From: a virus | Taxonomy: Duplodnaviria; Heunggongvirae; Uroviricota; Caudoviricetes | Length of the DNA: 12,024 nucleotides | Strand: one strand, 5' to 3' | Virus record (IMG/VR): IMGVR_UViG_2574180358_000007 | Shown here: positions 1 through 11,754 of the stretch, piece by piece | Position numbering within the stretch: position 1 is the first letter of the stretch | Layout: each line of letters begins with the position of its first letter | The notes under the pieces: generated by a model | Seen by the model: the letters and a program-made list of their open reading frames with translations, nothing else | Database searches by the model: none | What the model was told of the DNA's origin: nothing | Position numbers and translations under genes: made by a program

Positions 1-1209
1 TCATAAAGACTTGCTACTTTCTAATTCTGGGTTTCTGGATCTATTTTTACAACCTGAACCCGGCTGGGAATTTAGTATATCTTTTATCAAATCTTGTTCG
101 ATAGCATTTATTAAGAGCATTATGTCGAATTTATGCATGTCGTCTCCCCCTTCAGTCCTTAGATGTTCGGATGTGGTGAGTTGAGTCGCTAATTTGCTGT
201 TTGGCCCCCAAACAATATTATTCTCGAATTTCCCTTCATGCATTCGGTTATTATATATACAGTATTGTCTAATGTTTAATGCACTGGCTAAATGTACAAT
301 GGCAGTATCTACAGTTATAACAAAATCAGCATGGCGAACCAATGCAAATGAGCATCCTGCATCAGAAAATGGAGACAGAGACACATAATCCAATCCATTG
401 TGATTAATCTGTTTTCCCATGTTAAAAACTATTGTGTGATATCCCTTAAGATTGTTAAGGTAAACTAGTACTTTGTTTATCTGTTCATCAGATAAGGTTC
501 TGCTATTCTGAGAGCCATAAGGGTTAAATATAACTAATTTTTTGTTTTTCTTCCTGAATTCATTTGCAACAATATTTGCTGGCTCATATATTTTGTTGTC
601 AAAATTAAGCGCTGCAGCGTAATCATTATTTTTTATCTTTAGTAAAGATAAAACTTTTTTCATTCTTTCAGATGAGTGAACGGAACGGTTATCGATTATA
701 TTTGTATCAAAAATAGTTACGGCAGGATGATTAAAACAGATAGAGTGTTTAGGTTTAAGTAAATATAGTGTTTGCAATCTGGTTATCGCTGTGTTATCAA
801 AATTTGAGAAGTCAACAACAAGATCTACATTCAGTTTTTTTATCTTTGCTTTTAGTTCGTTAAATTTATTTTTCTCGTAAGAAATAAAGGCATCCACGCC
901 AACAATATCAGTAAAGAGGAATGATACTCTTGGAGGTGCTATCACATATACCACCATACCGGATTCTTGAAGTTGTTTAATAAACCCTGAGGTAACGATG
1001 CCGTCACCAATGGCCTGCATGTGCATGAAAATGCACACTGTTTTATAACTATCCGACTGTAATGATGTTTTCCTTCTGTATCGCATTTTTAGAAATGCCA
1101 GTCTGGCCTTCGTCTTTATCTTTTTTGTTTTAATATTTCGCTGTCTGTTAAGCTGTTTTAATGATGAAATAACATTCATAATGGTACCCTGAAATTCCAA
1201 ATCACTCAT
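1..1209 (-). CDS. Glycosyltransferase family 9 (heptosyltransferase-like) protein; start codon uncertain
   Basis: Minus-strand ORF ending at TAA (bases 3..1). The C-terminal half carries GT9-like motifs read from the translation: KKLVIFNPYGSQNSRTLSDEQ and ADFVITVDTAIVHLASALNIRQ, which resemble the HPGAS..K.WP and VGNDSGPMHLAAA regions of heptosyltransferases. An N-terminal Rossmann-like start is at KTVCIFMHMQAIGDG. The track ORF begins with GTG at 1347 and would overlap tfa; in-frame ATGs lie at 1209, 1179 (AGGG about 7 nt upstream) and 1086, and I chose 1209 without strong support. Codon usage is very A/T-rich and Lys-rich. Confidence 0.55.
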   Translation of the reverse strand: MSDLEFQGTIMNVISSLKQLNRQRNIKTKKIKTKARLAFLKMRYRRKTSLQSDSYKTVCIFMHMQAIGDGIVTSGFIKQLQESGMVVYVIAPPRVSFLFTDIVGVDAFISYEKNKFNELKAKIKKLNVDLVVDFSNFDNTAITRLQTLYLLKPKHSICFNHPAVTIFDTNIIDNRSVHSSERMKKVLSLLKIKNNDYAAALNFDNKIYEPANIVANEFRKKNKKLVIFNPYGSQNSRTLSDEQINKVLVYLNNLKGYHTIVFNMGKQINHNGLDYVSLSPFSDAGCSFALVRHADFVITVDTAIVHLASALNIRQYCIYNNRMHEGKFENNIVWGPNSKLATQLTTSEHLRTEGGDDMHKFDIMLLINAIEQDLIKDILNSQPGSGCKNRSRNPELESSKSL

Positions 1210-1273
1210 GTCATTCGAAACGAGCAGGGTACTATACAAAAAACTGGACTTCAATGGTTTGAAATGAAAGCCT

Positions 1274-1873
1274 TTATGCTTGTTTACTCCTTGATTCCAC
1301 TGGGGAAGCAGGCCACTCAATATCCGGTGCACTTGATGTATCAACACGGTTCAGCAATACCCGATACTTTTTCCATGCTTCCAGCAACGAGATTTCTTCC
1401 TCCGTTGCAATTTCCAGATCTGCAGCATCCTGAAGCGGCGCAATATGCTCACTGGCTACCTGCATCAGGTTGTTTTTTGTTTCTTCCGCCTCCCGTATCC
1501 GGAACAGTTTTTCTGCTTCCGTATCCTTCACCCAGGCTATGCCGTTCCACTTCTGATATTCCCCTTCCGGCGACAACCAGGTAACATTTTCCGGTAACGG
1601 ACCGAGTTCAGAAATAAATAACGCATCGCCGAAAGCCACGTCATAAACCGTTTTACCACGATGATCTTCAACGAGATGCCAGGACGCCTCATCACTGTTG
1701 AAAATAGCCACGAAGCCAGCCGGAATATCTGGCGGTACAATATCGGTACTGTTTGCAGGTAGACCTGTATGAGGTGGAATATATGTGTCACCTTCACCAA
1801 TAAATTCATTAGTTCCGGCCAGCAGATTATAAATTTTGATGGTTCGTGATTGTTCACTCATTCTGAATGCCAT
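1274..1873 (-). CDS. tfa: Phage tail fibre assembly protein (lambda Tfa / TfaQ-TfaR-TfaE family)
   Basis: The 199-aa translation [44 protein letters not shown]...[14 protein letters not shown] matches, from memory, the tail fibre assembly proteins of E. coli cryptic prophages (Rac, Qin, e14) almost residue for residue. ATG at 1873, stop TAA at 1276..1274. Confidence 0.85.
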
Positions 1874-1903: not shown

Positions 1904-2371
1904 ATGTTTTTGACGGTGTTTTCCGCGTTACCAGCAGCGTTAACGGTGATGGTGTGTCCATGTGAGCCAATCGCAACGGAGTGCGTGTGTGCACCAATAA
2001 AGGCAGTACGGGACCGGGTTCACAATGAACTCAATGCCGGACATCCGGTACCGGGGTTTAAACTGGTAACAGGAAAACAAGGTAACCGGGCCTGGAGTGA
2101 TGAAGAGGCAGCTCGCGCACTTCTGAAGGACCAGTTCAGGTACAAAACTGAAGAAGTATTCGACTTTAAACTTATTAGTCCCACAAAAGCCGAAAAACTT
2201 ATCAAAAAGGCCAGTCCGCGCCGTTGGTCAAAAGTCGAGGCACTGATAACACGAGCTGATGGTAAACCCACCGTCGTTCCCGAGTCAGACCCACGCCCCG
2301 TACTCAATATCAACCCTGTAAATGATTTCGACGACGTATCCGACGATACGCTAACCGCAGACCTCATCTGA
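1904..2371 (+). pseudogene. 3' remnant of a DUF2800-family (PD-(D/E)xK nuclease-like) phage replication gene; N-terminal part missing
   Basis: A 155-aa ORF ends 16 bp before the DUF2815 gene on the same strand, the position a full-length DUF2800 gene (about 400 aa) occupies in this conserved module. The translation FKLVTGKQGNRAWSDEEAARALL...KPTVVPESDPRPVL looks like the C-terminal region of such proteins as I recall them. In-frame stops lie immediately upstream and tfa on the opposite strand ends only 30 bp away, so no room exists for the N-terminal two thirds. Confidence 0.4.
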
Positions 2372-2386
2372 TTTAAGGAAATACCC

Positions 2387-2935
2387 ATGAAACTGAAGCT
2401 GAACAATGTTCGTCTGGCCTTCCCGTCTCTGTTTGAAGCTAAAACTGTAAACGGCGAAGGCGAGCCGCGTTTCTCCGCAGTATTTTTAATGTCACCCAAA
2501 CACCCACAACTGGAAGAAATCCGTAAAGCTATGAAGCAGGTAGCGAAGGAAAAATGGGGAGAGAAGTGGGAGCCCATTTATAGCCAGCTGGAGAAAAAAC
2601 TCAATCTGTGCCTGCATGATGGTGATGAAAAAGCAGAGTATGAAGGCTTCCCCGGCAATTTCTTCCTGAATGCTGCTAACAAAGCGCGCCCAGCTGTTCT
2701 TGATCGCGATCGTTCGCCACTAATTCAGGCTGATGGACGTCCCTATGCAGGGTGCTATGTAAACGCCGTTATCGATATCTGGGCACAGGACAATAATTTC
2801 GGTAAACGCATTAATGCCTCACTCGGCGGAGTCCAGTTCCTGCGAGACGGCGATGCATTCGCTGGCGGCGGAGTGGCAAGCGCTGACGATTTCGACGATA
2901 TCAGCGAAGGCGCTGATGCTGAAGCACTAATTTAA
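2387..2935 (+). CDS. DUF2815-family phage protein (predicted ssDNA-binding, replication module)
   Basis: The translation MKLKLNNVRLAFPSLFEAK...RFSAVFLM...LCLHDGDEKAEYEGFPGNFF...LDRDRSPL...GRPYAGCYVNAVIDIWAQDNNFGKRINASLGGVQFLRDGDAFAGG follows the DUF2815 consensus as I recall it. SD AAGGA lies about 8 nt upstream of ATG 2387. Position between the DUF2800 remnant and PolA fits the known module order. Confidence 0.8.
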   Translation: MKLKLNNVRLAFPSLFEAKTVNGEGEPRFSAVFLMSPKHPQLEEIRKAMKQVAKEKWGEKWEPIYSQLEKKLNLCLHDGDEKAEYEGFPGNFFLNAANKARPAVLDRDRSPLIQADGRPYAGCYVNAVIDIWAQDNNFGKRINASLGGVQFLRDGDAFAGGGVASADDFDDISEGADAEALI

Positions 2936-2986
2936 AAATATTCATCCCCCAGCTACGTGCTGGGGTATCTCATGAGGGAAAGTATA

Positions 2987-3628
2987 ATGTCACAGCCCGT
3001 ATTAACTAATCACCTTAAAACTCAAATCATCAATAACGCACTTGAGAAAGCGGGTATTCCCAAACGTAAATCAGCACTACGAGCTGCTCGTGTTGAATGG
3101 GCCGAACGTGTTCGGCTTGCAGCTATCGGGGGCGTAGAGAAAGAAGCTGAAATATTAAAAAATATAAAAAAGATTGAATCCATGGTCACAAAAATCCCTG
3201 ATTCATTAAAAACCAATAGTTCTTTAATTCGAAAAGATTGCTGCATATATCTCAATCTGGCTGGAGCCAGAGCAAACATTTATTTCAATGGCAACTACAG
3301 AGGTTATGAATCAGGAGCCCCCGAGCATATTAATAAAATAGCACCTGCAGAATTTACTCTACTTGGCGAAGATCCTCTGGTAACGGAGTTTTATAGCTTT
3401 GATGCTCTCTACACACAAATTAAAAGTGATGAAACCGAAATCATACAGAACGTCAGCGCGGCTCTAAATAAAGTTCGGACAGTAAAACGATTACTGGATG
3501 TATGGCCCGAAGCTAAAGAACTGCTTCCAACAGACGCACCGCCAGTCCCTTTAGCACCAGCAGTACATCGAGAGACATTAAATGAAATGATAGGCCTTCC
3601 TACCAATACAGTGTCTGATACTCAATAA
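2987..3628 (+). CDS. Hypothetical protein (A/T-rich insert between DUF2815 and DNA polymerase)
   Basis: Uninterrupted ORF; GAGGGA lies 7 nt upstream of ATG 2987 (alternative ATG 2972, track start GTG 2957). No family recognised from the translation. Composition is A/T-richer than the flanking replication genes. Confidence 0.5.
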   Translation: MSQPVLTNHLKTQIINNALEKAGIPKRKSALRAARVEWAERVRLAAIGGVEKEAEILKNIKKIESMVTKIPDSLKTNSSLIRKDCCIYLNLAGARANIYFNGNYRGYESGAPEHINKIAPAEFTLLGEDPLVTEFYSFDALYTQIKSDETEIIQNVSAALNKVRTVKRLLDVWPEAKELLPTDAPPVPLAPAVHRETLNEMIGLPTNTVSDTQ

Positions 3629-4311
3629 CAAGGGGGATGCTTATTATATGATTTTGAACGTTTTACAATCTCGTTAAGAGGCGTGAAATCAAAATCTCTG
3701 AATAACACATCAGGATACTTCGCTCTTGCTTTATCCTGCAGACCAGTTAAAGTATTTTTTGTGTTACCCAACATTGTATTAACCGCCACTACATGTCTAA
3801 TTTCTGGAGGTTTATCTATACCACCAGAAATTGCTTCATTAAGAACCGACGCCAGTGGGGTTTGTCCCTTACTTGTTGAATCCCACAGCGTCATTAACAG
3901 ACGAGCTGCGTCTATAAATAGCTTTTTGTCAGCATTTGGCTTGACAGTAATACCAGAACTACCTGAGCCAGAACCGGAACGTTCTATTGCTGCACTGGTA
4001 TCCGATTTCATAGGATTAAATAACGGCAGCTCTGTACAACCGATACGCCGAATGAAATCCTTTGCAACATCTCTACCACAGAAAAAAGCCCCTGTACAAT
4101 TTTCATCAGAGCGTTTTTTAAATGAAAAACAATAGTACTGATCGGTTAACGGATAACCGGAATAACTGGTTTTAGTTTGTCCAGTAATAAGTTTCAGGTG
4201 TGCAACAGGCTGAATAATAAAATCCCGAACTATCGCATCTTTTATGTCGTTACCACGGTGACAATAATATTCAGGTAATCCATTAGGCTGTCTCTTATTA
4301 CCCACAGTCAT
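3622..4311 (-). CDS. Hypothetical two-domain protein with a Gly/Ser linker, encoded antisense to the replication operon
   Basis: 229-aa ORF with a strong SD (AAGGAGA, 6 nt spacer) upstream of ATG at 4311..4309. An internal SGSGSGSSG linker separates a Cys/His-containing N-terminal half from the C-terminal half. The 3' end overlaps the 3' end of the convergent gene 2987..3628 by 7 bp. No family recognised. Confidence 0.6.
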   Translation of the reverse strand: MTVGNKRQPNGLPEYYCHRGNDIKDAIVRDFIIQPVAHLKLITGQTKTSYSGYPLTDQYYCFSFKKRSDENCTGAFFCGRDVAKDFIRRIGCTELPLFNPMKSDTSAAIERSGSGSGSSGITVKPNADKKLFIDAARLLMTLWDSTSKGQTPLASVLNEAISGGIDKPPEIRHVVAVNTMLGNTKNTLTGLQDKARAKYPDVLFRDFDFTPLNEIVKRSKSYNKHPPCY

Positions 4312-4372: not shown

Positions 4373-6436
4373 ATGTCCAATATACTATGGGGCGACCTGG
4401 AAACCTATTGTGACATTCCGATCAACAACGGTACCCATGCGTATGCCGAAGGCGTTGAAGTGATGCTTTTCGCATGGGCTATCAACGACGGGCCAGTAAA
4501 CGTGTGGGATATCACTGCCGGTGGTGGTATTCCACACGGCTTATACGAAGCAATCGCAGACCCTGAAACCCTGCTTTATTTCCATAACTCTCACTTCGAC
4601 CGCACCGTTCTGCGTTATGCAATGCCGCGACTGGCACCGCCTGTCGAACGTTGGCGCGACACGATGGTGCAGGCGCTGGCGCACGGTCTTCCGGGGTCTC
4701 TGGGGGAACTCTGCGAAGTACTAGGCGTCCCGCAAGACAAAGCGAAGGACAAAGAAGGTAAAGCGCTGATCCAGCTGTTCTGTAAGCCACGCCCGAAAAA
4801 CAGCAAACTGCGTCGGGCCACCAGTAAAACCCACCCGGAAGAATGGCGGCGCTTTGTTGCTTACGCCGGACTGGATATCGAGGCAATGCGCGAAGTCTAT
4901 AAACGTCTGCCGAAGTGGAATTATCAGGGGACAGAACTGGCGCTCTGGCATCGTGATCAGCAGATCAATGACCGGGGCGTCTGCATGGACATGCAACTCG
5001 CACGCGCTGCGATCGAAGCGGTAGACCAGGAACAAAAGCGCCTGGCAAAGCGTACACAGGAAATGACTGATGGCGAAGTGCAGGCAGCCACACAACGAGA
5101 CGCGTTGATTAAGCACATTGTTGAATCCTACGGTGTGGAGCTACCAGACATGCAACGCAGTACTCTGGAACGTCGTATTGCCGACCCCGATTTACCATCT
5201 GCCGTGAAAGAACTGCTGGCTATCCGACTGCAGGCCAGTACTACCAGCACCAGTAAATACAAGGCACTAATGAAAGGCGTAAGCCACGACGGGCGCTTAC
5301 GCGGTACGCTACAGTTCTGCGGGGCGTCACGTACCGGTCGTTGGGCCGGACGGCTATTCCAGCCCCAGAATCTTCCCCGCCCTTCACTAAAACAGGAACA
5401 AATAGACGAAGGCATCGAAGCACTGAAAGCCGGATGTGCAGACCTGCTGTTTGACAATATCATGGAACTAACCAGTTCAGCGTTACGTGGCTGCATTATC
5501 GCGCCAACAGGCAAAAAACTGGTGGTAAGTGACTTGTCGAACATTGAAGGCCGTATGCTGGCATGGTTGGCAGGAGAAGAATGGAAACTGAATGCATTCA
5601 GAGAGTACGACGCCGGAACGGGTTCGGACTTATATAAACTGGCGTATGCAAAAGCTTTCGATATTGCACCAGATGATGTTGATAAACACATGCGTCAGAT
5701 CGGTAAAGTCATGGAGCTCGGTCTGGGTTATGGTGGTGGTGTATCGGCTTTCATCACTTTTGCGCTGGTTTACGGTCTCGATCTCGACGAGCTGGCGAAC
5801 GCCGCATTGCCAAACATTCCCCGCGATGTTATCCGCGAGGCGAAAAGCTGGTACGACGAATCGGTTAAACGCAAGTCAACCTACGGGCTTTCTGAACGGG
5901 TATTTATCGCCTGCGACTCACTTAAACGTCTCTGGCGCAGGGCGCACCCGGCGACCTGCGATTTCTGGTACGAACTGGAGCGCACCGTCCGCACAGCAAT
6001 CGCCACACCGCAAAAAACATTGTATTGCGGCTATCTTAAAATCCGACGTGATGGCGCGTGGCTGCGCATACAGCTACCATCCGGACGCGCTGTATGCTAC
6101 CCGTCTCCGGTTATCGAAAAAGGGAATATCACCTACAGGGGTGTTAACTCTTATTCGCGTAAATGGCAACGACTCAAAACCTACGGCGGAAAGCTGGTGG
6201 AGAACGTCACCCAAGCAGCCGCCCGCGACGTTCTGGCCGGAAACATGCCGCTGATCGAGGATGCAGGTTACAGCATTGTGCTGACGGTACACGATGAGGT
6301 AATCACCGAGGCGCCGGACACTGACGATTTCAACGATAAAGCGCTTTCCGCGCTGCTCTCCACTAACCCCGAGTGGGCACCCGATATCCCGCTGAACGCT
6401 GGCGGCTTCGAGGCGTACCACTACCGTAAGGATTAG
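4373..6436 (+). CDS. Family A DNA polymerase with 3'-5' exonuclease domain (phage-type, no 5'-3' exonuclease domain)
   Basis: Exonuclease motifs WGDLET (Exo I) and [12 protein letters not shown] (Exo II). Polymerase motif [20 protein letters not shown], motif [17 protein letters not shown], motif [18 protein letters not shown] lies 6 nt upstream of ATG 4373. Confidence 0.9.
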
Positions 6437-6449
6437 CTGATCGCTGTCA

Positions 6450-6478
6450 TTGCTGCTTTGCTAAATATTGCTTATTTT
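6450..6478 (+). promoter_or_regulatory. Putative sigma70-type promoter upstream of the TIR-like gene (TTGCTG, 17 nt spacer, TATTTT)
   Basis: Hexamers read by eye in the 53-bp gap between the polA stop and the TIR-like start. The match to consensus is weak and the -10 element sits very close to the SD. Confidence 0.2.
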
Positions 6479-6489
6479 ATAGGAAAATA

Positions 6490-7251
6490 ATGATGCAGGA
6501 TCTCAATGAAATGGCTCTCAAATACCCACACCCTGTCGAAACTTTTCGTCAATTTTTAGTCGAATCCGGATTTGATGTTACCGGAGAAGAAAACAAAGCC
6601 GGTCATGATTGTTATCGTTTAAGTAATGGTGCCATCATAACGCTTTACCACACCGGAACGATTTTGATTCAAGGCTCACAAGCGGCAAAACCAGAGGTTG
6701 AAGCCATTATTAATGAACACTTGGGTAACGCGCCAGCTCAACGAGTTCAGCCAGCCCAGTTTCAAGAGCCAGCCAAAAAGATTTTCATCGTTCACGGTCA
6801 CGACCATGCAGCAAAAGAGCAGCTTGAGCTCATTCTTCATAAGCTTGGGTTACCTGATCATTTTATTTTGCAGAATACAGGCGGTACTGGACTTACGATA
6901 ATTGAAGAACTTGAGCGTGAAATTGGTCAAGGGCAGACAGCGACTCGTTTCGGCATTGTTCTTCTCACTCCCGATGATGTGGGGTACTCCAAAAGAGACG
7001 GTCAAGAAGCAGCCCTGCCCAGGGCTCGTCAAAACGTAGTTCTAGAAATGGGGATGTTGTTATCATCACTCGGGCGCAGTAACGTGGTCATCTTGCAGAA
7101 GCAACACCTTGAACAGCCTTCTGATGCTGCGGGTATTCTTTATCTCAACTTTAATGATCATGTTCGAGAAACTGTACCTCGCTTAATCCAGCGTCTTAAA
7201 CAGGCCGGTTTCACATTTAATGAAGCTCAAATAGCGAACGCTTCATCTTAA
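6490..7251 (+). CDS. TIR-like domain protein (COG4271 / Cap12-PycTIR-type predicted nucleotide-binding fold) with an N-terminal domain of about 95 aa of unknown function
   Basis: The C-terminal approx. 150 aa, KIFIVHGHDHAAKEQLELILHKLGL...IIEELERE...FGIVLLTPDDVGYSKRDG...PRARQNVVLEMGMLLSSLGRSNVVILQKQHLEQPSDAAGILYL, follows the TIR-like consensus as I recall it (FIVHGhD ... AIVLlTPDD ... RARQNVifELGyf.GkLGr.rV ... PSD..G). SD AGGA lies 5 nt upstream of ATG 6490. An intrinsic terminator follows immediately downstream. Confidence 0.6.
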   Translation: MMQDLNEMALKYPHPVETFRQFLVESGFDVTGEENKAGHDCYRLSNGAIITLYHTGTILIQGSQAAKPEVEAIINEHLGNAPAQRVQPAQFQEPAKKIFIVHGHDHAAKEQLELILHKLGLPDHFILQNTGGTGLTIIEELEREIGQGQTATRFGIVLLTPDDVGYSKRDGQEAALPRARQNVVLEMGMLLSSLGRSNVVILQKQHLEQPSDAAGILYLNFNDHVRETVPRLIQRLKQAGFTFNEAQIANASS

Positions 7252-7279
7252 TCAATCATTTTCCTAAAATGTAAAAAAA

Positions 7280-7301
7280 CCCTGCAAATGCAGGGTTTTT
7301 T
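7280..7301 (+). terminator. Rho-independent terminator downstream of the TIR-like gene (A-tract, GC hairpin, T-tract; potentially bidirectional)
   Basis: aaaaaaa-CCCTGCaaatGCAGGG-TTTTTTgttt is read directly from the sequence, 29 bp after the TAA stop at 7249..7251. Confidence 0.75.
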
Positions 7302-7317
7302 GTTTGAGGTAACCCCT

Positions 7318-7539
7318 ATGTCATTTAAATATCGGGACAGTCCCCTTTATTACCGGACTGCGCGGGAGGCTTTGCGCCTTGAGCAGATCGGCGAGTACGA
7401 CCGGGCGGCAAAAGCCTGGGCCAAAGCCAACCGCGAATCACGTAACGCACTGAATCAGGACTGGAGCGAACGCCGGTCTGATTTTTGCCTGATGCAGAAC
7501 ATGCGCGAAAAGCGTAAGGCGGTGGACGATGGCGTATGA
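7318..7539 (+). CDS. Small hypothetical phage protein (73 aa) translationally coupled to VRR-NUC
   Basis: ATG 7318 with GAGG about 10 nt upstream. Its stop TGA 7537..7539 overlaps the VRR-NUC start ATG 7529 (ATGgcgtATGA arrangement). The track ORF start at 7288 lies inside the terminator hairpin and is rejected. Confidence 0.5.
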   Translation: MSFKYRDSPLYYRTAREALRLEQIGEYDRAAKAWAKANRESRNALNQDWSERRSDFCLMQNMREKRKAVDDGV

Positions 7540-7801
7540 GCGTGAAAGCCTTATCGAAAAGCACCTCATCGCCGAAGTGAAAAAGGCTGGCGGGATCGCC
7601 TTTAAGTTTGTGTCACCCGGTCGCCGCTCGGTACCGGATCGGATTGTCCTGTTACCCGGCGGTCGTCTCGTCTTTGTCGAATGCAAAGCACCTGGCAAAC
7701 CACCACGCACCGACCAGCTGCGCGAGCATGAACGGCTGCGCGCGCTGGGCTTTACCGTGGTGGTGCTGGATAGCAAAAATCTTGAGGGGATATTATTTTG
7801 A
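7529..7801 (+). CDS. VRR-NUC domain nuclease (PD-(D/E)xK fold)
   Basis: 90-aa product with PDRIVLLPGGRLVFVECKAPGKPP, matching the VRR-NUC D...E.K core. It sits in the expected module position upstream of the SNF2 helicase. Confidence 0.8.
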   Translation: MAYERESLIEKHLIAEVKKAGGIAFKFVSPGRRSVPDRIVLLPGGRLVFVECKAPGKPPRTDQLREHERLRALGFTVVVLDSKNLEGILF

Positions 7802-8437
7802 TTTATCTTTAGGGCTGAGCAAACATGAACGGAAAGCATTCCGTTCTTCAGTACTGGATTTGATAAACGTGAAGTCCTTATCTGCATCTAATAGCTTAAA
7901 CGCCACCTCGTTAGTATCACATTTACCCACCAGAACCTTCTCACCCACGTTGTTAACAAGATGGTATCCTGGTATTTCTCTAACGATATATTTACCTGAA
8001 GAAACCCAAGCACTTATTTGAGCAACTGACGAGGTACATAACATTGTGAAGAGTGCAATAAGAACAACGTTGCTACCAGAAAGACTCCGAAAAGATTTAT
8101 GCCCATCCATTAACAGCTGCCACGTTAACAGTATGGGATAAAATGCAATAAAACAAATAGCGAAAACAATTGGTTTTCCGCCACTCATGTAAAAACCGAT
8201 CGGATTAACCAATCCAACAAACGAAAAATACAACACCGCCGCAACAACCGTAGTTAAAACAAAAGAGAGCCAGTACCTACTTAACTTATAAACCCTAAAT
8301 GAAGTAGCTATCGCTATAAAAATAGGCACTGAAGCCAAACCAGTAAATGAAAGAGTTTTTAGCAGCGAGCTAACATCTATCAATATAAAGTCAGCAGGAT
8401 AACTAAAAAAAATAAGCGAAAGACCATTGATAAACAT
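7793..8437 (-). CDS. Predicted integral membrane protein (about 5 TM helices) with a small soluble C-terminal domain; function unknown
   Basis: 214-aa ORF with ATG at 8437..8435 and no clear SD. Hydrophobic stretches LSLIFFSYPADFILIDV, GLASVPIFIAIATSF, WLSFVLTTVVAAVLYFSFVGLV, IVFAICFIAFYPILLTW, VVLIALFTMLCTSSV are followed by a polar approx. 65-aa tail. Visibly A/T-rich, antisense to the flanking replication genes, and overlapping the VRR-NUC 3' end by 9 bp. Confidence 0.6.
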   Translation of the reverse strand: MFINGLSLIFFSYPADFILIDVSSLLKTLSFTGLASVPIFIAIATSFRVYKLSRYWLSFVLTTVVAAVLYFSFVGLVNPIGFYMSGGKPIVFAICFIAFYPILLTWQLLMDGHKSFRSLSGSNVVLIALFTMLCTSSVAQISAWVSSGKYIVREIPGYHLVNNVGEKVLVGKCDTNEVAFKLLDADKDFTFIKSSTEERNAFRSCLLSPKDKSK

Positions 8438-9958: not shown

Positions 9959-10155
9959 GCGAGAAACCCGACGATTTACTCACCCCGGATGAAGTATGCC
10001 AAAAGTTAGGTATTACACAGAAAACGCTATGTGAGTGGAATATTAAGCATCGTCATCGGGCTATCCTGGCACCAATTCGTTTCAGTGCAAAAGTAGTTCG
10101 TTATGAGCGCCGCAATGTCGACGCTTTTATTCAAAAGTGTCGCAGCCGGTATTAA
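9955..10155 (+). CDS. AlpA/Xis-family helix-turn-helix protein (putative excisionase or transcriptional regulator)
   Basis: 66 aa, LLTPDEVCQKLGITQKTLCEW...VVRYERRNVDAFI, matching the AlpA-type pattern (HTH followed by a conserved VRY/W segment). The start ATG overlaps the helicase stop (ATGA), with AGAGAGG upstream. Confidence 0.65.
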   Translation: MSEKPDDLLTPDEVCQKLGITQKTLCEWNIKHRHRAILAPIRFSAKVVRYERRNVDAFIQKCRSRY

Positions 10156-11549
10156 CCTCGCCGCCGTAGCAATGCCACCTGCGCAAGTATGCTCCGCTCG
10201 TGAGCCTCGAAAGCTTCGCGCTTTAACGCAATCTCTTCCTGCAAAATCTCATCAGAAAAGTCGTAATGTTCTGCCATCGGGTCATCTGACTTGCTGGAGT
10301 GGTGAAGGCAAAGGAGGCTGATTTCCCTTCGGTCTGATCGGGAATAGCCTCTTTCCTTCATCAAGGCAATAACATTGCTCTTAAGGAATTTACGGCACAT
10401 CGTATTAAATGCACCGTCTTTCCCTTTAACAGTCCCATCATGTTTTATTCCTTTTACAGCCCCATCCGGGCTGTATGTTTTCACTAGCTTATCCAGTGAT
10501 CGTTTTGAAAATGGCTGCATTGGATCACGCGGCTGCAAAAATACATAATCCCTGTTGCACTCAGGAACTGAATCACGCCATGCTTTCTGCTCGTCGATAA
10601 TCCGCCGGATCTCCGGCGTTATTGGCAGGCGGAAAGCCTTTTGTGTTTTCATAGCCCCTCGCATGCCGATAACCCCTTCAGGATAAACAATTTCGCCAGT
10701 CTCCTCGTGAACGTAGTCCCAGCGCAGGTTATGGACATTAATCGGACGAACGCCGGTGATGATCATGAAGCGAACAGCATTCTTCTGGTGTACAGAGGTG
10801 CAGGCGGCAACATTGAGCCAGAGCCGGGCGATTGACTCAATATCGGTAAAAAGCCGTGTGGGGGTGGGTTTCTGTACGCGGGAGGAAACATAATCATCTG
10901 GCAGACTGGCAGCAACATTGCGACCGTTACAAAGAGTAGGTGCGCAGAACTTCCAGAACCGACGGAGCTCGGCAAACAACTCCAGGGCGTTATTGTTCGA
11001 GCGAGTGGCGATCCACTCGTCCAGCACTTCCACTAGCCGATTGTATGTTACGTCGCCGAACACCTCGCGCTCGCCGAACGTGGCTTTAATCCGGTCGATA
11101 CGCACCCCGTAGGTTGTGAAACTGTCCGGGCTCAGCTTCTGCCGGGCTACTTTAGCTTTGAGGTCATCCCGGTACATTTCCAGCGCTGCATGTACGGACT
11201 CTGCCCGCAGTCCACCGTCAGCCATACCTAGTGCTTTTTCGCGCGCCAGCTGGATAGCGAGCTCCGGCCACTCGCCAAGCTTTTTACCTTTGAGGCCCAT
11301 CTTTTTTGGAAACTCGGCGTAAAATGTAACCTTACCGGCTTTGCTGAAATCGATACGGAGATAGTTCTCTTTTTCGTATTTGGAACGGCGAGCCACGCCG
11401 GAAGCGGCGAGGATGATTTTGGCAGCAGCAACACAGATTTTCATGTGTGCGCTGATATAGGGGGGTTTACAGGCGTCCCATTTTTCAGATGCGGCTAAAA
11501 CATCGTCATTATTGGGGCTATCCGGATTATGTGTTACAGTGCGCGGCAT
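10152..11549 (-). CDS. int: Tyrosine-type site-specific integrase (P4-like family)
   Basis: An N-terminal arm-binding-like segment (YLRIDFSKAGKVTFYAEF) precedes the catalytic domain (MIITGVRPINVHNLRWDYV ... LLCLHHSSKSDDPMAEHYD, with a C-terminal Tyr candidate). ATG at 11549..11547 has AAGGA 6 nt upstream. The track start is TTG at 11555, and an alternative ATG lies at 11444. Confidence 0.85.
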   Translation of the reverse strand: MPRTVTHNPDSPNNDDVLAASEKWDACKPPYISAHMKICVAAAKIILAASGVARRSKYEKENYLRIDFSKAGKVTFYAEFPKKMGLKGKKLGEWPELAIQLAREKALGMADGGLRAESVHAALEMYRDDLKAKVARQKLSPDSFTTYGVRIDRIKATFGEREVFGDVTYNRLVEVLDEWIATRSNNNALELFAELRRFWKFCAPTLCNGRNVAASLPDDYVSSRVQKPTPTRLFTDIESIARLWLNVAACTSVHQKNAVRFMIITGVRPINVHNLRWDYVHEETGEIVYPEGVIGMRGAMKTQKAFRLPITPEIRRIIDEQKAWRDSVPECNRDYVFLQPRDPMQPFSKRSLDKLVKTYSPDGAVKGIKHDGTVKGKDGAFNTMCRKFLKSNVIALMKERGYSRSDRREISLLCLHHSSKSDDPMAEHYDFSDEILQEEIALKREAFEAHERSILAQVALLRRRG

Positions 11550-11754
11550 TCTCAATCCTTATCTGCGTAGGCGCAGAAAACAAGCTCACACATATAAGTC
11601 TTTTCTACGGGACAAAATGCAATGTGTTGCGGTTTTGTGTTGCTGGACTGAGTTTATCAAGGTTAAATACACTGGATCAACATACAGTAAGTTAATGACG
11701 GTAAAGCATACAAACTCGATACAACTTACTGATTTTAAAATGATTTAACGGTAA

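Follow-up and report, generated by a model that had tools for sequence, protein, structure and literature searches.

A prophage accessory gene joining a predicted TBP-like N-terminal domain to a CAP12/Pycsar-type TIR domain is a candidate single-protein anti-phage system

The stretch of DNA analysed here (the window) is 12,024 nt long. The gene under study lies in it as an intact open reading frame of 253 aa on the plus strand (6490..7251), found in the ORF list and supported by PADLOC, phrog_16442 and homologues. It follows the family-A (PolA-type) DNA polymerase gene of a prophage (4373..6436, plus strand; PF00476, E 6.6e-14; "DNA polymerase" in RefSeq). Downstream, also on the plus strand, are the gene of a small ANR-family regulator (7318-7539) and that of a VRR-NUC nuclease (7529-7801). 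Both were annotated by RefSeq, and the pair gave matches to phrog_2227 or phrog_93. The VRR-NUC gene had no match in Pfam, and its label was taken from RefSeq and the phrog_93 endonuclease match (E 2e-30). An earlier note on this DNA had the gene flanked by PolA and VRR-NUC genes. PolA is indeed directly upstream, and VRR-NUC is downstream with the small ANR-family gene between it and the cassette.

The cassette begins with a 53-nt AT-rich spacer 3' of the PolA stop codon (6437..6489, plus strand), in which the Shine-Dalgarno sequence AGGA was read at 6481-6484, 5 nt ahead of the ATG. It ends with a symmetric, bidirectional intrinsic terminator (7274..7301), detected by terminator scan and folding. 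The hairpin, AAAAAACCCTGCAAATGCAGGGTTTTTT, had a folding energy of -20 kcal/mol (z = -4.7), and none of 200 shuffled sequences was equally stable. The Shine-Dalgarno sequence and strong terminator proposed in the earlier note were thus both recovered. A consensus scan, which weak or non-consensus promoters may escape, found no sigma-70-like promoter in the 53-nt spacer or in 6200-7600, and manual reading of the cassette gave hexamers of 7/12 quality only, for which no promoter is claimed. Therefore, we credit the cassette with its own Shine-Dalgarno sequence and terminator, not with a demonstrated promoter. The Rfam scan gave no RNA element inside or near the cassette, and no tRNA was found there. 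The GC content of the cassette was ~45%, against ~55% in its flanks.

The borders of the cassette were placed by comparison with related prophages. On the left, the PolA stop codon (6434-6436) is the insertion boundary, since an empty-slot prophage (L005) and prophages carrying different cargo cease to be homologous right after it. On the right, homology to empty-slot prophages restarted at ~7314, just 5' of the ANR start at 7318; this junction was inferred from comparing the empty-slot sequence with the window sequence. In the empty-slot prophages, ANR and VRR-NUC directly follow PolA. A survey of 159 E. coli genomes showed this slot either empty or occupied by a second TIR allele, DUF7446, a SAM methyltransferase, Ant or an ATP-binding protein. 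When the alternative cargo was scanned with PADLOC and PHROG, the only matches were to phrog_10579 and phrog_3364, neither of known function, and a weak partial one to DrmA. PADLOC gave no match among the immediate neighbours of the gene, and two adjacent reverse-strand orphan ORFs gave nothing in either scan. Because these scans yielded so little, we call the site a variable accessory slot and not a proven defence hotspot.

We concluded that this insertion is a prophage "moron": related prophages may lack it, its site between conserved phage genes is fixed, its composition is atypical and it brings a terminator of its own. The host prophage belongs to a family that is common in E. coli and integrated beside yfhL. 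It is a decayed remnant without structural genes, in which the TIR gene is intact. Other genes near the cassette include Nmad5 and an Enc34-type SSB. The location inside the phage replication module and the decayed state of the prophage were both counted against a defence reading of the gene, as were the lack of PADLOC matches among its neighbours and the negative promoter scan.

The C-terminal half of the protein is a CAP12/Pycsar-type TIR domain, as the earlier note had proposed from a TIR-like consensus. The Pfam model PF10137 (CAP12-PCTIR_TIR; cut-off 24.7 bits) scored 107.4 bits on residues 97-222 (E 5.8e-31), the match spanning positions 1-118 of the 119 in the profile. Together with a C-terminal helical extension, the domain occupies residues 96-253 (6775..7248, plus strand), as delimited by PF10137, Foldseek and profile matches, the last of which include Cap12 and PycTIR chains. 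With a predicted model of only moderate confidence in this half (pLDDT 50-88), Foldseek placed 9lmq, 9lmr and 7un8 at the top, with ~155 aligned columns and E values from 1.5e-5 to 1e-3; for 9lmq and 7un8, which are TIR-STING NADases that form filaments, the range was 1.5e-5 to 3.8e-4. No match to PF08937, the ThsB-type TIR, was found in the protein with Pfam.

The predicted catalytic glutamate is Glu186 in the motif QNVVLEMG, encoded by the GAA codon at 7045..7047 (plus strand). It was invariant among 90 homologues, and it aligned with the glutamate of NVVFEFG in SfSTING Cap12 (7un8) and in a second TIR-STING (9lmq), and with that of NVHLEFG in PycTIR (8jsj). The fold and the TIR-like glutamate were among the checks that the earlier note had asked for, and both came out in its favour. 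The segment H102-G-H-D105 of the domain was also invariant. In CAP12/Pycsar TIRs, a catalytic glutamate and activation by oligomerisation have been described, and for the amoeba proteins TirB and TirD of the CAP12 clade no processing of NAD+ was seen, so that not all such TIRs are NADases (bioRxiv 10.64898/2026.04.30.722052). The domain is probably an NAD-destroying enzyme, and by analogy it would be activated by oligomerisation.

The region N-terminal to the TIR domain had been described as an unrecognised domain of about 95 aa. Both parts of this description needed correction. The folded part covers only residues ~9-78 (6514..6723, plus strand) and is followed by a linker of ~17 residues (residues 79-95, 6724..6774, plus strand) with low model confidence, its residues 81-92 having pLDDT <50. 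The linker, delimited by pLDDT and conservation, is the least conserved segment of the protein (mean pairwise identity of 20% over the family; dN/dS of ~1 for the E. coli alleles) and is probably disordered. The predicted fold of the domain (helix, four-stranded antiparallel sheet, helix) could be superposed on RNase H3 N-domains, and on this modelled structure we assign it to the TBP-like domains of the RNase HIII N-domain / RnlA type, with sequence homology remaining below threshold. The window protein scored 15.6-17.7 bits with DUF3378 (PF11858), under the cut-off of 27. Sub-threshold matches to PF11858 appeared in 6 of 37 family members (best E 0.002) and to RnlA_toxin (PF15935) in 9 of the 37 (best E 8.6e-5), and a PDB profile comparison of the domain with RNase HIII/RnlA gave E ~0.25. 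Among the viral folds of BFVD, the N-domain had no significant match (best E 0.017); an RNaseLS-like phage protein was in that non-significant listing.

The N-domain carries the motif Y53-H-T-G-T-I-L-I-Q-G62, in which G56, T57, Q61 and G62 are invariant or at least 90% conserved. The RNase H3 N-domain binds RNA/DNA hybrids only, via Arg32, His28, Tyr43, Ser45, Ser47 and Gly52 (PMC4132731). In our protein, H39...R43 and Y53-x-T55-x-T57-x4-G62 have the same spacing as His28/Arg32, Tyr43, Ser45, Ser47 and Gly52 of Ta-RNase H3; this is agreement in register only, since residues were mapped by spacing and not from a printed structural alignment. We predict that the N-domain is probably nucleic-acid-binding.

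The suggestion that this part forms a module of its own, with a sensing or regulatory role, was supported by its reuse and by its much faster divergence relative to the TIR half. There were 1027 N-domain matches in all. The N-domain heads 105 of 120 relatives of a dCTP-deaminase fusion, being up to 52% identical, and these include proteins named "anti-phage dCTP deaminase" by NCBI. A ~9-TM protein and proteins with other C-termini begin with it as well. Fused TBP-like domains are likewise carried by RNase LS HEPN toxins and bacterial Schlafens (PMC3710099, PMC13056530). Between the two E. coli alleles, the N-domain was 47% identical and the TIR domain 89%; the mean pairwise identities family-wide were 36% and 73%. 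The dN/dS values between these alleles were 0.20 for the N-domain and 0.03 for the TIR domain. Because dS was saturated (2.3-3.3), these values are uninformative on positive selection and were used as relative rates only. The non-coding flanks of the gene also differ between the two alleles.

The earlier note had presented the gene as the strongest candidate in the window for an undescribed defence function. The family is, however, already listed: the protein belongs, over its full length, to the PADLOC candidate family PDC-S35 (model PDLC05003, E 1.6e-109, positions 3-245 of the 245 in the profile), and four more PDC-S35 models matched at E 1e-43 to 1e-58. It also matched phrog_16442 (E 3.9e-78), and RefSeq names it "TIR domain-containing protein". 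The two-domain architecture, the length of ~250 aa and the single-gene organisation are all common to PDC-S35 and this gene, and we saw no structural difference between them. PADLOC PDCs came from "guilt by embedding" and are unvalidated candidates (PMC12988326). PDC-S35 is accordingly a computational candidate only, for which we found no published domain description, trigger or phenotype. Our literature search found no experiment on defence or NADase activity for the family, no experimental or descriptive paper on the TBP-like plus TIR architecture, and none mentioning PDC-S35.

More than 3300 homologues of equal length were found, and only 4 of 50,697 phage records matched. The family occurs mostly outside phages, in integron cassettes, ICE/integrase islands and chromosomes of many phyla. 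In Ralstonia, V. cholerae and a third lineage, homologues had no conserved neighbour; the islands that carry them are of the integrase, recombinase or ICE kind, and the genes alongside encode Mrr, PemK or an SMC-ATPase. In V. parahaemolyticus, the homologue is the single gene of an integron cassette between attC-like repeats. A 71%-identical allele was found at the same site in the genome record of an inducible phage.

The earlier note had also seen no cyclase or ThsA partner, and this observation was borne out over a wider range. No cyclase, CD-NTase or ThsA gene was present in the window, and none was annotated in the 20 kb to the left or right of the locus in E. coli L6-21, which is 100% identical. 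SIR2/SLOG or any other conserved partner gene was likewise absent from the window, the L6-21 locus and the homologue contexts examined. Membership in CBASS, Pycsar and Thoeris was rejected because the partner genes and sensor domains of these systems are absent. For CBASS with a Cap12 effector, there is no adjacent CD-NTase in the window, within 20 kb of the L6-21 locus or beside distant homologues, and no STING or SAVED sensor. For Pycsar, pyrimidine cyclase and cNMP-binding domain are lacking, and for Thoeris, there is neither a PF08937 match nor an adjacent gene for ThsA or another effector.

The best structural match, Cap12 TIR-STING (SfSTING 7un8 and 9lmq), has in common with our protein PF10137, the glutamate motif xNVVxExG and presumably the chemistry, which by analogy would be oligomerisation-activated NAD+ hydrolysis. 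The sensor of TIR-STING is, however, a C-terminal STING domain, whereas here a TBP-like domain stands at the N-terminus and no CD-NTase accompanies it. Identity between the TIR domains is ~21-23% only, and the NCBIfam Cap12 equivalogs NF050172 and NF050171 scored 32 bits against a cut-off of 450. PycTIR (8jsj) belongs to the same Pfam family, its NVHLEFG aligning with QNVVLEMG, and the PADLOC PycTIR match (E 3.6e-10) was confined to the TIR part; unlike PycTIR, our gene has no cNMP-binding domain and no adjacent pyrimidine cyclase. The N-domain points to other relatives. A large sub-group of anti-phage dCTP deaminases of ~600 aa opens with the same TBP-like domain (E 1e-24 to 3e-7 with a profile derived from the TIR family). 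Like the TIR gene product, each of them is a single protein through which an essential nucleotide would be depleted, but their effector is a kinase-like plus cytidine-deaminase module instead of a TIR domain. The studied dCTP deaminase of E. coli AW1.7 (576 aa, P-loop at G29/C30) appears to be without the TBP-like N-domain. In RNase HIII and RnlA/LsoA, the domain is joined to an RNase H or HEPN nuclease, whereas here it is joined to TIR, and its nucleic-acid binding is predicted.

We propose, with slightly better than even confidence, that the gene codes for an autonomous anti-phage system made of one protein and acting by abortive infection or superinfection exclusion, in which a TBP-like sensor is coupled to a TIR NADase effector and carried in a prophage moron. 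The single-gene defence system of the earlier note is partly supported in this way by anatomy and domains. What the data show are the domain identities, the invariant catalytic motif, the movement of the gene on its own and the reuse of the N-domain in other proteins; NADase activity, its activation by oligomerisation and the defence phenotype are what we infer. The effector would be the C-terminal TIR domain of CAP12 type, which, to judge from TIR-STING and further CAP12/Pycsar TIRs, would be inactive as a monomer or dimer. Once a ligand was sensed, the protein would oligomerise and the TIR domain would turn into an NAD+ hydrolase. NAD+ would then be drained, phage replication stopped and the infected cell sacrificed. 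The ligand, which is the least certain part of the proposal, would most likely be a nucleic acid made during infection. Our specific guess is an RNA/DNA hybrid, because the closest structural relative binds only hybrids and the contact residues are kept in register.

A more general reading, which we regard as doubtful, is that the TBP-like N-domain is an unnamed and widely shuffled infection sensor of a nucleic-acid intermediate arising in phage replication or transcription, most likely an RNA/DNA hybrid. It would be coupled to at least three unrelated kill switches (TIR NADase, dCTP deaminase and a membrane effector), and more distantly to RnlA-type HEPN RNases and bacterial Schlafens.

The site between PolA and VRR-NUC in the replication module, near Nmad5 and the Enc34-type SSB, raises the question of whether the gene serves the phage, as an accessory of replication or nucleotide metabolism or as a counter-defence factor. 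For example, the TBP-like domain might bring a TIR/NDT-like N-glycosidase to RNA/DNA primers, or the protein might destroy or sequester host immune nucleotides. Such a role would be consistent with the presence of DUF4406, SAM methyltransferase or Ant, and not classical defence genes, in the same region of related prophages, with the inducible-phage record of the 71%-identical allele, and with the action of the closest N-domain relative on replication intermediates. We nevertheless consider it unlikely. The family is mainly found outside phages and is very rare among phage records, the cassette is optional within its prophage family, an intact gene has been kept in a remnant without structural genes, and the N-domain is also joined to a validated anti-phage effector class. 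A different function of the TIR domain, making an ADPR-derived messenger for an unlinked effector like ThsB without NAD+ depletion, would agree with reports that many bacterial TIRs signal instead of depleting NAD+ (bioRxiv 10.64898/2025.12.03.692087) and that TIR phylogeny does not always predict chemistry (bioRxiv 10.64898/2026.04.30.722052). The domain belongs, however, to the CAP12/Pycsar clade and not to ThsB PF08937, and neither the contexts examined nor the single-gene integron cassette offered a conserved partner, making this very unlikely in our view.

The best-known PF10137 TIRs are the effectors Cap12 and PycTIR, so that the protein might also be an orphan effector of the CBASS or Pycsar type, activated by a cyclic nucleotide from a cyclase elsewhere in the genome or on another mobile element. 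We judge this highly improbable, as no cyclase was found in the window, within 20 kb or by distant homologues; the N-domain fold is not STING, SAVED or cNMP-binding; the scores with the Cap12 equivalogs were far below the cut-off and the PycTIR match was limited to the TIR part; and the single integron cassette speaks for autonomy. Just as improbable is a prophage-stabilising toxin, an addiction module held by a labile RNA or host factor on the TBP-like domain in the manner of AvcD/AvcI, with the anti-phage effect as a by-product. The retention of the gene in a decayed prophage would suit it, and tampering with host RNA polymerase triggers the dCTP deaminase response. The N-domain is common to RnlA/LsoA toxins and to dCTP deaminases, which have RNA-regulated toxin relatives. 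On the other hand, there is no antitoxin ORF, the flanks of 53 nt and ~60 nt leave no room for an sRNA, conservation does not extend to the non-coding flanks of the two E. coli alleles, and an AvcI-like antitoxin RNA is unsupported because the Rfam scan was empty. An addiction role also overlaps heavily with the anti-phage reading that we favour.

How single-protein abortive-infection systems sense phages is open for many families, and a 253-aa protein of two domains is a compact case of this problem. The E. coli setting makes phage panels and genetics easy. The effector chemistry, a TIR NADase with a catalytic glutamate, is predictable by analogy, and the closest solved relative of the sensor binds RNA/DNA hybrids specifically. 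Since the family is already a PADLOC candidate, the finding amounts to a well-motivated experiment and not to a new class. The fixed slot in the prophage replication module is also a place to seek further accessory or defence cargo. Because the same sensor stands on many anti-phage dCTP deaminases, a result obtained here would probably transfer to them. If the sensor reading is true, infection sensing by a whole set of single-protein defences, among them the dCTP deaminases with this N-domain, could be studied conveniently on this small prophage gene.

The interval 6437-7304 holds a sole ORF, an intact CDS for a 253-aa protein at 6490-7251 (+), with a Shine-Dalgarno sequence (AGGA) 5 nt before its ATG. 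No sigma-70-like promoter was found by promoter scan in the 53-nt spacer upstream. Terminator scan and folding located a perfect 12-bp, GC-cored hairpin with A and T runs on either side at 7274-7301 (-20 kcal/mol, z = -4.7); 200 shuffles yielded no fold as stable. Upstream lies a family-A DNA polymerase (PolA, 4373-6436), and downstream a small ANR-family gene (7318-7539) followed by a VRR-NUC nuclease (7529-7801). The ORF, its own Shine-Dalgarno sequence, the strong terminator and the PolA and VRR-NUC flanks were all found, and therefore the anatomical description of the cassette in the earlier note was correct.

The TIR-like C-terminal domain proposed there was borne out by Pfam HMM search, in which residues 97-222 matched PF10137, the CAP12/Pycsar effector TIR domain, far over threshold (E 5.8e-31). 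A profile of 90 homologues matched solved chains of Cap12 TIR-STING (7un8, 9lmq) and PycTIR (8jsj), and it aligned Q181-N-V-V-L-E186-M-G of the window protein with NVVFEFG and NVHLEFG. E186, H102-G-H-D105 and about 50 more positions are invariant in the 90 sequences. The closest PDB matches of the AlphaFold2 model (mean pLDDT 75, the TIR half at moderate confidence only) were filament structures of TIR-STING (E 1.5e-5). By alignment with the Cap12/PycTIR motif, E186 is the predicted catalytic glutamate. CAP12/Pycsar TIRs act as NADases via a catalytic glutamate and are switched on by oligomerisation, and some members of the clade are inactive in vitro (bioRxiv 10.64898/2026.04.30.722052).

The N-terminal domain, previously described as unrecognised and about 95 aa long, turned out to be a recognisable TBP-like domain at residues ~9-78 followed by a linker. 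A confident helix, four-strand sheet and helix, with a low-confidence linker next, came out of two models, one full-length and one of residues 1-80 only (pLDDT 86), and Foldseek with the full model matched 4py5 over 76 columns (prob 1.0). Of 37 family N-domains, nine gave sub-threshold Pfam matches to RnlA_toxin (best E 8.6e-5) and six to DUF3378, which represents the N-domain of RNase HIII. The two best PDB profile matches, LsoA and Aquifex RNase HIII, had the common motif Y-x-T-G-(S/T)-x-x-I-Q-G. The sequence evidence for a TBP-like identity is weak but consistent.

The isolated RNase H3 N-domain binds RNA/DNA hybrids and neither dsDNA nor dsRNA, and its contacts are Arg32, Glu27, His28, Tyr43, Ser45, Ser47 and the Gly52 backbone (PMC4132731). 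In the window protein, H39...R43 and Y53-H-T55-G-T57-I-L-I-Q-G62 have spacings identical to those of the contact residues, and G56, T57, Q61 and G62 are invariant or at least 90% conserved in the family. By register, rather than by a printed structural alignment, these positions may correspond to the RNase H3 contacts. A weak match to KH_DEAH11 was also seen in the domain (window 6652-6717, residues 55-76, E 0.04-0.14). Dictyostelium TirB and TirD, CAP12-clade TIRs of bacterial origin, have a common small N-terminal partial-KH-like domain (bioRxiv 10.64898/2026.04.30.722052); because of this and the weak KH_DEAH11 match, they might descend from a bacterial TBP-like plus TIR architecture of the window type.

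The N-domain does recur on other effector types, a point that the earlier note had raised. A search with an N-domain-only profile gave 1027 cluster representatives at E <= 0.001 (334 at E <= 1e-10), and C-terminal architecture was classed for the best 150 of the 1027. A TIR domain followed in 33 of these 150, a dCTP-deaminase module in 5 and other C-termini in 23; the remaining 89 were N-domain only, or fragments. Among the other C-termini were a 428-aa protein predicted to span the membrane ~9 times and recurrent ~150-165-aa proteins with a small common C-terminal domain (ends such as '...IHIRKL'); these two types comprise P0174, P0177, P0199, P0200, P0208, P0213, P0222 and P0268. Pfam and PADLOC scans of some of them matched no family.

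The protein P0255 (617 aa) carries the N-domain at residues 1-73 and matched the PADLOC dCTPase model at E 7e-173. The N-domain was present at E 1e-24 to 3e-7 in 105 of its 120 closest relatives. These 105 are 571-675 aa long and include Pseudomonas proteins named 'anti-phage dCTP deaminase' by NCBI, and 14 of the 15 relatives lacking it were only 495-529 aa long. The N-domains of the TIR and dCTP-deaminase families reach 52% identity, with the common consensus Q-(I/F)-R-x3-G-(A/G)-I-L-N-W-Y-x-S-T-G-T-I-x-F-Q-G. The experimentally studied dCTP deaminase of E. coli AW1.7 (576 aa, P-loop G29/C30) apparently lacks the N-domain; its activation was tied to interference of the phage with host RNA polymerase (bioRxiv 10.1101/2021.04.26.441389). 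The ~600-aa 'anti-phage dCTP deaminase' proteins with the N-domain (among P0255 and P0271-P0389) occur in Pseudomonas, Myxococcota and many metagenomes, and the domain is seemingly unmentioned in the original dCTP deaminase description. TBP-like fusions have been reported for RNase LS-type HEPN toxins (PMC3710099) and for 1.5% of bacterial Schlafens (PMC13056530).

Two alleles of the TIR gene share one E. coli prophage site; among 5426 complete genomes, 10 have the window type and 37 the IAI1 type. Between them the N-domain is 47% and the TIR half 89% identical, with dN/dS of 0.20 and 0.03, respectively (dS saturated); family-wide, identity is 36% and 73%. Such a fast front end and strongly constrained enzyme fit, without proving, a sensor-effector split.

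A decayed prophage lying between yfhH and yfhL makes up the window; it carries an integrase at 10152-11555 and a truncated DUF2800 gene and has lost its structural genes. GC content is ~45% in the cassette versus ~55% in the flanks. Homology with related prophages ends at the PolA stop and restarts just before the ANR start, and in an empty-slot relative ANR starts within 6 nt of PolA. In 159 E. coli genomes with this polymerase, the slot was empty or filled with varied cargo: either TIR allele, DUF7446, a SAM methyltransferase, an Ant antirepressor or a reverse-strand ATP-binding protein. The IAI1-type allele was found at the same place in deposited phage genomes (vB_EcoM-689R2 and relatives). 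Because of the low GC, the homology breaks, the empty or differently filled slot and the phage-genome copies, the TIR gene is a moron, optional and always in this one slot. Since a defensive role is not clear for the remaining cargo, the slot is not put forward as a proven defence hotspot. The 342-aa 'ATP-binding protein' (phrog_3364) in the PolA/VRR-NUC slot of E. coli MINF_2E (L004 3945-4973 (-)) showed weak, partial similarity to the N-terminal end of DISARM DrmA (E 2.9e-8). DUF4406 also occurs near the slot; in the one case read, it lay just outside, between ANR and VRR-NUC.

A second variable accessory slot of the replication module lies between Nmad5 and PolA, where the reverse-strand ORF 3622-4311 (-) (229 aa, ~40% GC) had no match in Pfam, PADLOC or PHROG and IAI1-type prophages carry a different 209-aa protein (phrog_10579, function not annotated). 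A third, situated between VRR-NUC and the SNF2 helicase, contains the reverse-strand ORF 7793-8437 (-) (214 aa, 33-40% GC), which matched no family and looks membrane-embedded in its hydrophobic N-terminal part, and related prophages have unrelated reverse-strand proteins there, of 265 aa (IAI1, MINF_2E) or 236 aa (FDAARGOS_144). The region 1904-3628 (+) encodes the truncated DUF2800 (C-terminal 155 aa only), an Enc34-type ssDNA-binding protein and the 'nucleotide modification associated' protein Nmad5, and related prophages have an additional DUF4406 (nucleoside deoxyribosyltransferase-like) in the replication module; with this gene content, the phage family might modify DNA or nucleotides. 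At the far end of the remnant, a family-9 glycosyltransferase (heptosyltransferase-like, 1-1347 (-)), which may be phage-borne LPS modification cargo, adjoins a tail-fibre assembly gene (1274-1873 (-)). The sole Rfam match of the window, IS009 at 1332-1530 (-) (219 bits; gathering score 117), overlaps the region of the tail-fibre assembly gene. E. coli L6-21, whose locus of the TIR gene is 100% identical, has an IS903B copy, absent from the window, between this block and the truncated DUF2800.

The lack of a cyclase or ThsA partner, stated in the earlier note, was upheld: no cyclase, CD-NTase or ThsA-like gene lies within the window, nor does the annotation show one up to 20 kb to the left or right of the L6-21 locus, where the element is flanked by ordinary housekeeping genes. 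The window protein scored 32 bits with NCBIfam Cap12 equivalog models against a cut-off of 450, and the PADLOC PycTIR model covers its TIR part only. On these grounds a component of CBASS, Pycsar or Thoeris was rejected. In Ralstonia, Vibrio cholerae and one further lineage, distant homologues are located in integrase, recombinase or ICE islands with varying neighbours (Mrr-type nuclease, PemK toxin, SMC-like ATPase), never beside a cyclase. In Vibrio parahaemolyticus, the homologue P0053 (52% identity) forms a cassette of its own, with no other gene, in a chromosomal integron (L016 6963-7979, GCA_014919565.1), bounded by an attC-like repeat (TAACAAA...GGCGTTA) present in 23 copies in 16 kb of the array. 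Since it travels as a single gene, this is strong evidence that the protein works alone. An orphan CBASS or Pycsar effector driven in trans is accordingly very improbable, and a TIR that signals, as ThsB does, to an unlinked effector is hardly less so.

The most likely reading, which we consider somewhat probable, is that the gene encodes a one-protein abortive-infection or superinfection-exclusion system, combining a TBP-like sensor or regulatory domain with a TIR NADase. The analysis has shown what the domains are, that the catalytic motif is invariant, that the gene moves singly and that its putative sensor is reused as a module; for its ligand, activation mode, enzymatic activity and phenotype we infer the following course. 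A ligand that accompanies infection, most plausibly a nucleic acid and, as the specific proposal, an RNA/DNA hybrid, would be sensed by the TBP-like domain or would regulate it; its binding would allow TIR-TIR oligomerisation, which would lead to NAD+ hydrolysis via E186, and loss of NAD+ would arrest cell and phage. For a moron set among replication genes, a role beneficial to the phage, in replication, nucleotide metabolism or counter-defence, is conceivable but unlikely. There is also a very slight chance of a toxin or addiction module held under a labile RNA or host factor.

The idea that the gene represents an undescribed defence function did not hold. The window protein matched PADLOC PDLC05003, a model of the putative single-gene family PDC-S35, nearly over its full length (E 1.6e-109, positions 3-245 of 245), as well as PHROG 16442 (function not annotated), and RefSeq names it 'TIR domain-containing protein'. 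Because of these matches, it counts as one more member, newly added, of a known but unvalidated candidate family, and its defence function is putative. PDCs are unpublished 'guilt-by-embedding' candidates of PADLOC, mostly unvalidated (PMC12988326), and our literature search found no paper naming PDC-S35 or describing its TBP-like plus TIR architecture. What the earlier note had observed was confirmed, while its reading as a sensor-effector protein was supported in part, without the claimed novelty. The present analysis adds what the N-terminal domain is and that it is reused as a module, and so turns an 'unknown sensor' into a specific testable hypothesis, common to many anti-phage dCTP deaminases.
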